This document shows, piece by piece, positions 60,869 to 64,000 of a stretch of DNA of 64,000 nucleotides; within the stretch, counting starts at the first letter, position 1; every line of letters begins with the position of its first letter. This DNA is from Escherichia phage vB_EcoM_SYGD1: the sequence record MW883059. One strand, written 5' to 3'. The notes beneath the pieces were generated by a model. That model ran no database searches. It had not been told where the DNA came from and saw nothing but the letters and a program-made list of their open reading frames with translations. A program made the translations under genes and the position numbers.

Positions 60869-61282
60869 ATGAAATTAGAAGATCTTCAAGAAGAATTGAA
60901 GAAAGATGTGTTTATAGATTCGACTAAATTACAGTATGAAGCAGCTAATAATGTGATGTTATATAGTAAATGGCTTAATAAGCATTCAAGTATTAAAAAG
61001 GAAATGCTTAGAATTGAAGCGCAGAAAAAAGTTGCTCTTAAAGCTAAATTAGACTACTACTCGGGACGAGGAGATGGTGATGAATTTAGTATGGATCGTT
61101 ATGAAAAATCAGAAATGAAGACAGTTCTATCAGCTGATAAGGACGTTTTAAAAGTTGATACTTCATTACAATATTGGGGAATTTTATTGGATTTCTGTAG
61201 CGGAGCTCTTGATGCTATTAAATCACGTGGATTTGCTATTAAGCATATTCAAGACATGCGAGCATTTGAGGCTGGAAAATAA
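60869..61282 (+). CDS. uvsY: recombination mediator UvsY (137 aa)
   Basis: Exact T4 length; position after gene 25. Confidence 0.9.
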   Translation: MKLEDLQEELKKDVFIDSTKLQYEAANNVMLYSKWLNKHSSIKKEMLRIEAQKKVALKAKLDYYSGRGDGDEFSMDRYEKSEMKTVLSADKDVLKVDTSLQYWGILLDFCSGALDAIKSRGFAIKHIQDMRAFEAGK

Positions 61283-61509
61283 TGAAATATAGCATTGATG
61301 ATGCTTTTAATTATGAAGAAGAATTCGAAACGGAAATTCAATTCTTAATGAAAAAGTATAATTTCAAGCGTCAGGATATTCGTATCCTGGCCGACCACCC
61401 ATGCGGTGAAGATGTACTTTATATTAAAGGAAAATTTGCCGGATATCTTGATGAATATTTTTATTCTAAAGATATGGGCATTGATATGCATATGAGAGAT
61501 ATGGGGTAA
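61282..61509 (+). CDS. hypothetical protein 75 aa (uvsY.-1-like)
   Basis: ATGA-coupled ORF. Confidence 0.5.
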   Translation: MKYSIDDAFNYEEEFETEIQFLMKKYNFKRQDIRILADHPCGEDVLYIKGKFAGYLDEYFYSKDMGIDMHMRDMG

Positions 61510-61632
61510 ATATGACAAATTATAAAGAAGTATTTAGACTTTTAGCAGAAATGGAAGCATGTTTAAAGCGTGTGCAAGAAATGCGCTTTAAGATGGGGTT
61601 ATAAATAGTATTATATTCAAAAGGAGACAATC

Positions 61633-61800
61633 ATGTCAGATAAGATTTGTGTTGTCTGTAAAACTCCAATCGATTCTGCATTGGTTGTTGAAACAGACAA
61701 AGGTCCTGTACATCCTGGGCCTTGCTATAATTACATTAAAGAACTACCGGTTTCAGAAAGTTCGGAAGAACAATTAAATGAAACACAACTTTTGCTATAG
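61633..61800 (+). CDS. small Cys-containing protein 55 aa (uvsY.-2-like)
   Basis: GGAGACAATCATG start context; CVVC pair; below track cut-off. Confidence 0.4.
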   Translation: MSDKICVVCKTPIDSALVVETDKGPVHPGPCYNYIKELPVSESSEEQLNETQLLL

Positions 61801-61823
61801 TGTGACCTTTAGTCTATAGTTTT

Positions 61824-61856
61824 GGCCCTTCCTTTTTGGTTGGGCCTTTTTTAATT
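61824..61856 (+). terminator. candidate terminator between convergent units
   Basis: GGCCC...GGGCC arms with long loop, followed by TTTTTT. Confidence 0.4.
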
Positions 61857-62098
61857 TAAAAGCTTTCTTCTACTTCATCGTCTGAATCTTCTAATTCAGC
61901 TCTTTTTCCTGCCAAAGCATCTCTCACGGAGATGTCATCAGTATCTTTTAATTCAGTTTCTTTAACTCTTTTCTTATAATAAGCTTCAAGTTCTTCTAGA
62001 CCTTCTAATGTTTGACAAGAGGCAATTTTACCCATAAATTCATCAATAGAAGCTTCATAAAGAAATTGTTTAAATTCTAGTAACATCTTTTTCTCCAA
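61856..62098 (-). CDS. hypothetical acidic protein 80 aa (uvsW.1-like)
   Basis: ORF downstream of uvsW on same strand. Confidence 0.5.
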   Translation of the reverse strand: MEKKMLLEFKQFLYEASIDEFMGKIASCQTLEGLEELEAYYKKRVKETELKDTDDISVRDALAGKRAELEDSDDEVEESF

Positions 62099-62111
62099 AG
62101 GGCCGAAGCCC

Positions 62112-62804
62112 TTATAAATTAACTGTTTTTCTAAGTATTCTTAGTTTGTACATTGATAATCCAGTAGCTTTAGAAGCATCTTTCATGCATTTATACTTAA
62201 CACCATTTACTTCTATAGGTTTAGCAGCTGGGTTATTAGCTCCTGAATTATCTGGCATGTTATCTTTAATTTTCTGAATAGATTTAGCGGAATGTTTCCT
62301 TCCATACATGCCATTATTTTTACCTGATTGATTGATAGAATGCAATCTTTTAGCTTCTTCAGTCCATTTTGTTGGGTTCATTCTTTTAGTTTTACTAATT
62401 TTACTTCCCCACGTAATTGGACGATTTTTCATGAGTTTTGACATATATTGTTTATGTTCTTCCGTATGGTGTTTTCCGTAAAATGGATTACCTTCACCTG
62501 ATTGAAGTTTTGCCATTTTACGACGTTCCCAGGCGTAAGATTTATTAACGTGTCTTTCATGAGTATTTGAATTCATTCCCATACATATAACGGCTTTAAT
62601 TATACCGTAATGGTTTGGATGAATTTTAGCTAAAAGTTTATGAGCTATAAAATGCTCTTCAGCTGTTAGTTCTACCAAATTACACTTATCATCTGTACCA
62701 CCCATACATCTAGGAATTATATGATGAGTTTCAGTGTATCCATTAAGGCGAGCCCGATTCTGGGCTCTATTAATTAAATTATCATATATTAATTTATAAT
62801 TCAA
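62112..62804 (-). CDS. free-standing HNH homing endonuclease, paralog of the MobE-like gene
   Basis: N-terminus MNYKLIYDNLINRAQNRARLNGYTETHHIIPRCMGGTDDKCNLVELTAEEHFIAH parallels MobE-like ORF; basic C-terminal repeats; start overlaps uvsW stop. Confidence 0.8.
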   Translation of the reverse strand: MNYKLIYDNLINRAQNRARLNGYTETHHIIPRCMGGTDDKCNLVELTAEEHFIAHKLLAKIHPNHYGIIKAVICMGMNSNTHERHVNKSYAWERRKMAKLQSGEGNPFYGKHHTEEHKQYMSKLMKNRPITWGSKISKTKRMNPTKWTEEAKRLHSINQSGKNNGMYGRKHSAKSIQKIKDNMPDNSGANNPAAKPIEVNGVKYKCMKDASKATGLSMYKLRILRKTVNL

Positions 62805-64000
62805 AGTTTAACCTCTTTCATCACATAATTAAACTTCTCATCAGCATAACGCTGAATACGATCAAGTCCATGTTTTAAAAGATAGTTTAAATGCGAGTAT
62901 TTTTTAGAAGATGTTTTTGATTTAGAAACTACGCCCGCGTCATCTATGAGGTCCCAGACTGTTGCGATTGTTTTAGAACCATGCTTACGTAATACGCGAC
63001 CTATTGTTTGCAATACAATAATTTTAGATTTAACGCCGTGCGCTAAAACAACGTGATGCAGATTTTTAACTGAAATACCAGTAGAAAATACACCATAACT
63101 AGCTACTATAATTATTCCTTTACCGTTTTCAGCTAAGGTTTTCATTATGTTTCGAGTTTCGGTATCAACTTCCCCTGATACGTAATAAACTTTATCGTAT
63201 TCATTTTTAATTAAATCGAAAATAGCTTTACCATGTGATACATGCTTAAACATGACAAAAGCGTTTTCATCTTTTTGCGCAAGTTTAATAGCTAATTTAG
63301 CGATCCATTTATTTCTTTTACTGAGCCCAGTAATAATTTTTATTTCTTCTTGGTAAGTTTTTCCCTTTAATTTAGTAGTGAACTCATCAGGATAACGAAG
63401 AAAAATACTATTAATTTTTAACTCAGTTACTTGTCCATCTTCCATTAATTTAGAAGTCGTTACTGGCTTAAATATTTCACCAAACATTCCAACATACTGC
63501 ATGATATTAGCTTTGCCATCACGTAATGAACCTGATAGACCAAATTTGAACATGCAGTTATTTAAACCTGATATAATAGATGAAATACTTTTTCCTGTAG
63601 CAAGATGGCATTCATCATTCATCATCATTCCAAATTGTGAAAACCATTCTTTTGGTTGTTTTACTACAGTTTGCCATGTACCAACAATTACCGGTGCATC
63701 ATTTTTATATTTATCATCTTTTGATGCTCCGCCACCAATTTTCTTTATCATTGCATGACTGAATAAACGATAATCAACAAAGTCATCAGCCATCTGAGTT
63801 GTCAGAGCAGTTGTTGGAACAATGATAAGAATTTTACCTTCATAATTTTCCAAATAATAACGTGCAAGCAAAGCTTGAATTAAAGATTTACCTGCGGATG
63901 TTGGAAGATTAAGAATTCTACGACGATTAACTAATCCTTCGAACACTGCATCTTTTTGATACCAATGCGGTTCAATTCTTTTATTTCCTGAATAGATTTC
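62801..64000 (-). CDS. uvsW: UvsW helicase, C-terminal part (N-terminus beyond window end)
   Basis: SF2 helicase C-terminal motifs (QTIGRVLR); ORF open to window edge. Confidence 0.8.
   Translation of the reverse strand, partial: EIYSGNKRIEPHWYQKDAVFEGLVNRRRILNLPTSAGKSLIQALLARYYLENYEGKILIIVPTTALTTQMADDFVDYRLFSHAMIKKIGGGASKDDKYKNDAPVIVGTWQTVVKQPKEWFSQFGMMMNDECHLATGKSISSIISGLNNCMFKFGLSGSLRDGKANIMQYVGMFGEIFKPVTTSKLMEDGQVTELKINSIFLRYPDEFTTKLKGKTYQEEIKIITGLSKRNKWIAKLAIKLAQKDENAFVMFKHVSHGKAIFDLIKNEYDKVYYVSGEVDTETRNIMKTLAENGKGIIIVASYGVFSTGISVKNLHHVVLAHGVKSKIIVLQTIGRVLRKHGSKTIATVWDLIDDAGVVSKSKTSSKKYSHLNYLLKHGLDRIQRYADEKFNYVMKEVKL

Follow-up and report, generated by a model that had tools for sequence, protein, structure and literature searches.

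A predicted Mob-type HNH homing-endonuclease gene at the uvsW/uvsW.1 junction of T-even phages

Introduction

How does an endonuclease gene come to lie at the very end of a helicase gene, does it move, and how long has it been there? These questions are raised by a stretch of 64,000 nucleotides from Escherichia phage vB_EcoM_SYGD1 (MW883059), referred to here as the window, which is a segment of a Tequatrovirus (T-even) genome. Toward its end the gene order is gp27, gp51, gp26, gp25, uvsY, uvsY.-1, uvsY.-2, uvsW.1, a homing-endonuclease gene (the junction HEG) and uvsW. A preliminary description, made from the sequence alone, had pointed to this gene as a second HNH homing endonuclease in the window, related to MobE, not known at this position in T4 and perhaps the product of a recent homing event. 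Public records already annotate the junction HEG as a 'homing endonuclease', and the gene is uncharacterised. In the literature on uvsW and homing endonucleases we found no description of it, and a review of T4 mobile elements gives SegE as the sole endonuclease at uvsW.

Results

The reading frame, its start codon and its neighbours

The 230-aa minus-strand ORF that had been described is present in both the ORF list and the sequence (Table 1). It had also been said to begin with an ATG overlapping the uvsW stop codon. The overlap was confirmed, with two nucleotides shared between the start codon and the TGA at 62803-62801 within the string cTTTGA (a TTGA overlap), and the start codon was found to be TTG, not ATG. 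A TAA lies in frame two codons 5' of this TTG, and the next in-frame ATG comes only after the catalytic HH. The start is regarded as secure because the orthologues of Roth16 (Klebsiella) and Rgz1 (Morganella) have an ATG at the exact aligned position of the TTG. The N-terminus (M/L)NYxxIYDxLI is kept throughout the family.

Upstream, the uvsW frame is open as far as the window reaches, so the gene continues past the window end. Downstream lies uvsW.1 (Nolan 2006, PMC1524935), whose Pfam family, UvsW-1, was detected at orthologous loci; the mechanical ORF list gives an 80-aa TTG version of this gene that begins four codons too early. Two further signals were seen in this neighbourhood. A perfect T4 late-promoter box, TATAAATA, is found at 61600-61607 (+), upstream of uvsY.-2 (61633-61800, +), and a GGCCC...GGGCC hairpin lies at about 61805-61850, between the converging uvsW.1 and uvsY.-2, matching the bidirectional terminator that Nolan et al. 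(2006, PMC1524935) described as conserved.

Table 1. Positions of the features discussed, in coordinates of the window
Feature	Position	Strand	Basis or detail
Junction HEG (homing-endonuclease CDS, 230 aa)	62112..62804	-	TTG start 62804-62802, TAA stop 62114-62112
HNH catalytic motif, residues 23-55 (YTETHHIIPRCMGGTDDKCNLVELTAEEHFIAH)	62640..62738	-	Invariant residues, MobE identity, model
NUMOD3 repeat 1, residues 94-122	62439..62525	-	Pfam PF07460
NUMOD3 repeat 2, ~residues 157-182	62259..62336	-	Second PF07460 stretch; aligns to I-TevI DNA-binding domain 1i3j
C-terminal I-TevI-like DNA-binding module (two short strands + helix-turn-helix), residues 193-225	62130..62228	-	
Intragenic hairpin GAGCCC-AGAAUC-GGGCUC, ~37 nt past start codon	62750..62767	-	Conserved in position
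Cassette-borne substitute uvsW tail, AAA GAG GTT AAA CTT TGA = KEVKL*	62801..62818	-	Sequence + T4-type alignment
Resident uvsW tail, AAA ACA GTT AAT TTA TAA = KTVNL*	62112..62129	-	Identical to uvsW 3' end of HEG-lacking L006, L007
GGGCUUCGGCCC UUCG-tetraloop hairpin, native to uvsW/uvsW.1 intergenic region	62100..62111	-	Identical in HEG+ and HEG-
Endonuclease-linked polymorphic tract, uvsW 3' end	62822..62930	-	Fixed HEG+/HEG- substitutions
uvsW helicase, 3' 1.2 kb	62801..64000	-	Open frame to base 64000; 1509-bp uvsW in T6, HY03
uvsW.1, 76 aa, ATG at 62086	61856..62086	-	100% identical to T4-type UvsW.1
nrdA-nrdB MobE-like ORF, 243 aa	35976-36707	+	Alignment to T4 MobE

Nuclease and DNA-binding modules

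The junction HEG product matches PHROG 655, 'homing endonuclease', with an E value of 4e-61, and its homologues comprise a 98% identical cluster together with orthologues of graded similarity. It contains H27/H28, N42, H51 and H55, and the HNH motif is undisrupted, as H28, N42, H51 and H55 are invariant across the 66 sequences of a homologue alignment. The Pfam HNH model PF01844 scored 16.7 bits, below its cut-off of 21.4 bits (E 0.008), and a precomputed PF01844 match was present in one of 120 junction-HEG homologues (P0066) among the matches listed; this divergent Mob-type HNH typically escapes the model. Since PF01844 is sub-threshold, the HNH assignment is drawn from the motif and from homology to T4 MobE, not from Pfam.

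T4 MobE is 52% identical to the junction protein over N-terminal residues 1-106, with no similarity beyond. The MobE-like ORF between nrdA and nrdB in the window is 48% identical to it over 134 aa. These two ORFs had been said to share their first ~60 residues including the HNH motif, and a count from the alignment gave 42 matches in 60. The view that the window holds a second MobE-related HNH homing-endonuclease gene is supported by this MobE homology together with the HNH residues. The nrdA-nrdB ORF is itself near-identical to T4 MobE for ~60 residues (62% over 110 aa), after which its C-terminus is different and longer; in T4, nrdB.1 comes after a MobE of only 141 aa. The ORF of the window could represent a variant of MobE or a replacement of the Hef-like kind; alternatively, the T4 protein could be truncated.

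An AlphaFold model of the junction protein had a mean pLDDT of 85 and a pTM of 0.49. Residues 25-61 form a strand-strand-helix unit (strands 25-28 and 43-46, helix 48-61) with pLDDT above 90. Foldseek comparison with HNH domains returned weak matches, for example Cas8-HNH at E 0.23, and full-length fold searches with the junction protein recovered neither I-HmuI nor any other HNH homing endonuclease confidently.

The remainder of the protein resembles DNA-binding modules. NUMOD3 (PF07460) scored 51 bits against a cut-off of 20.4 bits and is present in two copies. Residues 157-216 align weakly (E 0.006) to the minor-groove helix and helix-turn-helix of I-TevI, and the Pfam model I-TevI_DNA-bd stayed below cut-off. 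The predicted layout is an N-terminal HNH nuclease, two NUMOD3 copies as linker and minor-groove elements and a C-terminal I-TevI-like helix-turn-helix.

The coding sequence appears to be maintained. Among close Tequatrovirus copies dN/dS is 0.05-0.16, and between genera it is 0.12-0.36. The window and T6 copies differ by 18 synonymous and 5 non-synonymous changes (dN/dS 0.06), and no stop codon was found within any of nine junction-HEG copies examined. Because close copies differ mostly at synonymous sites, the protein is under purifying selection. Taken from its sequence, the junction HEG is predicted to be a free-standing Mob-type HNH homing-endonuclease gene, with MobE as its closest relative.

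Anatomy of the insertion

Compared with T4-type genomes, the insertion point is ATGAAA / ACAGTTAATTTATAA, five codons 5' of the uvsW stop. The insert spans 62130-62818, about 689 bp, and the cassette is put at ~0.8 kb. The cassette gives uvsW a replacement tail that includes the Shine-Dalgarno sequence of the HEG, and the HEG borrows the native uvsW stop. The candidate Shine-Dalgarno sequence is the GAGG at 62812-62815 in the substitute tail, 7 nt before the TTG. At the other end, the displaced native tail (62129-62112) supplies the last five codons and the stop of the junction HEG. The UUCG hairpin and, next after it, the Shine-Dalgarno sequence of uvsW.1 are both unaltered by the insertion.

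The same design is found in Escherichia phage PSD2002, where the uvsW product finishes in KEVQI* at a TTGA overlap; the endonuclease in turn terminates in MKQVDL*, the tail native to uvsW in the HEG-lacking relative L011. The arrangement 'ATGAAAGAGGT..TTGA' seen in the window recurs in PSD2002 and in L024, which has the KEV..TTGA head as well. Roth16 and Rgz1 have ATGA overlaps instead of TTGA.

Distribution and age

The junction HEG is absent in T4 and in the T4-type contigs L006 and L007. In line with the preliminary description, T4 lacks an endonuclease gene here; both in T4 and in T4-type contigs uvsW runs directly into the GGGCTTCGGCCC hairpin and then uvsW.1. The gene is present at the same site, with at least 95% amino-acid identity, in 48 GenBank/RefSeq phage records representing ~35 phages. 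Carriers include T6 (three records), Yersinia phage PST, ACG-C40, HY03, UFV-AREG1 and pSe_SNUABM_01. This is a sporadic distribution, 48 records against the ~600 Tequatrovirus-level records with an uninterrupted uvsW/uvsW.1 junction. A scan of IMG/VR with UvsW.1 gave just 14 loci, so the GenBank phage collection was the basis for the population counts.

Copies within Tequatrovirus differ at ~3% of bases (dS ~0.15). Orthologues of 55-70% identity occupy the same uvsW/uvsW.1 junction in Roth16, PSD2002, Rgz1 and three metagenomic contigs. The suggestion of a recent homing event does not stand, since comparison of the junction in related phages places the same gene at the same locus in T6 and other T4-type references. 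With these carriers, ~3% divergence among copies and orthologues in other genera at the same junction, the insertion is neither recent nor unique. Its sporadic presence and sharp mosaic boundaries fit a mobile element that would have spread by homing, yet is long established.

An endonuclease-linked tract in uvsW

A 3-kb alignment of five HEG+ and three HEG- Tequatrovirus sequences contained 25 fixed substitutions between the two groups, and all 25 lie in the ~110 bp of the tract listed in Table 1. Background divergence is ~2% (~0-5 differences in each 60 nt), against ~24% over the final ~165 bp of uvsW; the downstream flank is identical. The comparison of PSD2002 (HEG+) with L011 (HEG-) gave an uninformative divergence profile because these genomes are ~25% divergent throughout.

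At the protein level, the tract recodes the UvsW peptide GVKPKSANMKKKYV to GVVSKSKTSSKKYS, a 13-aa patch, and GVKPKSANMKKKYV is otherwise conserved across genera. The tract was found in 48 of 48 HEG+ records and in four records that lack the HEG: LH2, OES_C-1, OES_C-2 and OES_C-3. These four phages are recombinants, of HEG+ type down to 62894 and of T4 type from 62888 (LH2 is contig L019). Patch-only recombinants can also arise through ordinary recombination. We found no other lineage carrying the tract, and no donor, in the phage collection, where the next best match is ~77% identical.

By analogy with MobE, the tract at 62822-62930 is our preferred candidate for the target or immunity site. 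It could also be merely donor flank brought in by co-conversion. Roth16 carries an orthologue yet retains the 'sensitive' GVKPKSANAKKKYV peptide, so the tract may be foreign flank from an unsampled donor instead of the target. The Roth16 peptide weakens a simple immunity reading of the tract. LH2-type alleles, which have the patch without the HEG, are natural test alleles for target-site immunity.

Expression signals and the 5' hairpin

The HEG strand has neither a perfect T4 late promoter nor a MotA box in 61001-64000, and sigma-70-like sites on that strand over the same interval were at chance level. In the scan for promoters and terminators, hits were no more frequent than in shuffled sequences. 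The lack of a recognizable promoter and the stop/start overlap suggest co-transcription with uvsW and coupled, weak initiation at the TTG. An A/U-rich stem that might occlude the TTG was considered and dropped, as it was not clearly conserved in orthologues.

A hairpin within the gene occurs at the same position in all four orthologues and in T4 mobE, with stems that differ in sequence and z scores of -2.6 to -4.2. Hairpins that are GC-rich and ~30-40 nt into the ORF were seen in the window and in L004, L020, L022, L024 and L025 (T4 mobE). The internal hairpin of mobE is an experimentally demonstrated weak intrinsic terminator (PMC2790892). Because the junction-HEG hairpin has a poor U-tract, its function as a terminator is doubtful. 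Its conservation by position and not by sequence suggests, by analogy, that mobE-style attenuation may be general in the family.

The uvsW/uvsW.1 split and the T4 reference sequence

In the T4 RefSeq entry (L003, NC_000866.4 112677-114440) uvsW is annotated as a fused 587-aa gene. The true T4-type junction according to contigs L006 and L007 is ...ATGAAAACAGTTAATTTATAAGGGCTTCGGCCCTTTGGAGAAAAAGATG. T4 RefSeq reads GTTAATTTAATAAGCTTCGG against GTTAATTTATAAGGGCTTCGG in the T4-type contigs, and GTTAATTTAATAAGCTTCGG is a known sequencing error that masks the uvsW stop and uvsW.1. The uvsW/uvsW.1 split has been reported for all T4-like phages examined (PMC1524935), and all 75 of the 75 UvsW.1 homologues found here are stand-alone proteins of 52-96 aa. 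The idea that the HEG split a once-fused helicase was rejected as unsupported, since every UvsW.1 homologue found is stand-alone and the 587-aa T4 fusion is the sequencing error. Another annotation at this locus is an artefact: in Roth16 (L004 1002-2504) uvsW is labelled 'U3 small nucleolar RNA-associated SSU processome protein 25'.

Discussion

A proposed route of homing and its alternatives

We think it likely that the junction HEG is a Mob-type HNH gene carried in a cassette at the end of uvsW, co-transcribed with it and homing into the uvsW 3' region. Homing is favoured because phages that are ~98% identical carry the gene sporadically and with a sharply bounded divergent flank. The gene would have no promoter of its own and would be co-transcribed with uvsW. 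Its translation, from TTG, would be weak and coupled, and the conserved 5' hairpin probably attenuates its transcript, much as happens in mobE. When a carrier and a HEG-lacking phage infect the same cell, the enzyme would nick or cut the uvsW 3' region of the latter, most likely in or beside the equivalent of 62822-62930. Recombinational repair, with the carrier genome as template, would then bring in the HEG together with the flanking tract. Protection of the carrier may come from the ~24% divergence of the tract, from the insertion, or from the two combined.

The alternative that survives best concerns the target. The enzyme might recognize the insertion point itself, at the junction of uvsW tail and hairpin, as intron-encoded endonucleases do, in which case the tract would be co-converted donor sequence. 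The splitting of ATGAAA/ACAGTTAATTTATAA would abolish a site at that point, Roth16 has an orthologue and still retains the conserved patch peptide, and the database holds no patch donor lineage (next match ~77% identical), which is compatible with a foreign flank. However, the characterised free-standing T4 endonucleases, MobE included, cut at a distance, within the conserved gene next to their own, and carriers are polymorphic at the cut site (PMC2790892). The patch is also linked to the HEG in 48 of 48 records, and it occurs alone in recombinants with a sensitive-type tail. We regard an insertion-point target as possible, though on balance unlikely.

A second alternative is that the junction HEG is resident and no longer mobile, either decaying or domesticated. 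It would be inherited vertically, spread by general recombination alone and kept solely by its embedding in the uvsW-uvsW.1 operon. Its divergence does roughly track that of uvsW (window and Roth16 are 69% identical in the HEG and 74% in the C-terminal 200 aa of UvsW), the TTG start is weak, four phages have the tract without the HEG, and T4 offers precedents for defunct endonucleases, such as I-TevIII. Against this, the catalytic residues are invariant, purifying selection is strong (dN/dS 0.05-0.16) and the ORF is full-length in all copies examined. Sporadic presence among ~98%-identical phages with a sharp divergent flank is also unexpected under vertical descent. Loss of mobility therefore seems improbable to us.

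The lineage may also be asked to account for the split itself. An ancient insertion of a junction-specialised lineage could have made the universal uvsW/uvsW.1 split, with the HEG later lost from most phages. This was raised because the lineage lies at the exact junction in at least five T4-like genera, where, as a rule, it alters the C-terminal end of uvsW and takes over the stop codon; we consider this origin of the split very unlikely. Finally, a chance or mis-called ORF, for which the non-ATG start and the overlap with the upstream gene could be cited, is hardly conceivable and, judged by sequence comparison, already refuted by 338 homologues (best E 1.8e-148), the conserved domains, dN/dS well below 1 and the orthologue ATG at the same position.

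Relation to known endonucleases

The closest comparison for the homing route that we favour is T4 MobE, a free-standing HNH homing endonuclease at nrdA/nrdB (Wilson & Edgell 2009, PMC2790892). The mobE gene is promoterless, has an internal terminator and is co-converted with its flanks, and its product nicks the neighbouring gene ~120 nt from the near end, at a carrier-polymorphic position beside a conserved block (PMC2790892). The junction HEG resembles it in the HNH domain (52% over 106 aa), a start fused to the upstream stop, the lack of a detected promoter, a GC-rich hairpin ~30-40 nt into the ORF, its free-standing state, its sporadic distribution and a polymorphic tract that lies ~100 nt away from the insertion in the conserved neighbouring gene. 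It differs in its location at uvsW/uvsW.1, in its TTG start and in its point of insertion, which falls within the final codons of the upstream gene, where the cassette provides a substitute tail and the HEG takes over the original stop. Its candidate target is upstream of the gene, whereas that of MobE is downstream. The two proteins also differ in length (230 vs 141 aa), as the junction HEG has an unrelated, longer C-terminus of two NUMOD3 copies and an I-TevI-like helix-turn-helix. T4 Mob proteins are known to have a common HNH N-terminus and a protein-specific C-terminus (PMC2790892).

With I-TevI (PDB 1i3j/1t2t) and the NUMOD3-containing phage endonucleases, the junction HEG shares a modular nuclease-linker-DNA-binding layout, and its residues 157-216 align, a weak similarity at E 0.006 and below the Pfam cut-off. 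Unlike I-TevI, it has an HNH instead of a GIY-YIG catalytic domain and is not intron-encoded. It also lacks the fold match and the group I intron location of the I-HmuI-like intron-encoded HNH nickases. Like mobE of Aeh1 in nrdA and mobA of T4 in gene 39/60, the cassette adds coding sequence to the host gene, in this case the last five codons of UvsW and the recoded 13-aa patch. In contrast to those two, the junction HEG leaves its host gene unsplit, and the division of uvsW from uvsW.1 is older and found in HEG-lacking phages (PMC1524935).

SegE, a T4 GIY-YIG endonuclease encoded between inh and uvsW that targets uvsW, is likewise free-standing and flanks the same helicase gene, but it belongs to another nuclease family, lies at the opposite end of uvsW and is unrelated in sequence to the junction HEG. 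In T6 and HY03 a 618-bp segE-type gene is located immediately upstream of uvsW (L001 5713-6330 and L002 5813-6430); the T6 copy carries the erroneous label 'tail tape measure protein'. In these two phages uvsW is bracketed by two unrelated homing endonuclease genes. The window ends before this position, as the segE of T6 and HY03 lies just beyond the window end.

Significance

The current understanding of homing is unchanged by the junction HEG, which is an uncharacterised sixth Mob-type endonuclease locus in the T-even catalogue. The 110-bp tract and the four patch-only recombinants provide a specific and cheap prediction for the target site, and, with T6 as a carrier, the gene is open to testing by classic T4 x T6 crosses. 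The junction HEG is also a clean natural example of a free-standing endonuclease that invades an essential-operon gene at its very end and does no harm: the substitute tail doubles as the ribosome-binding site of the endonuclease gene itself, the displaced tail is reused as its stop, and the downstream signals are left intact.
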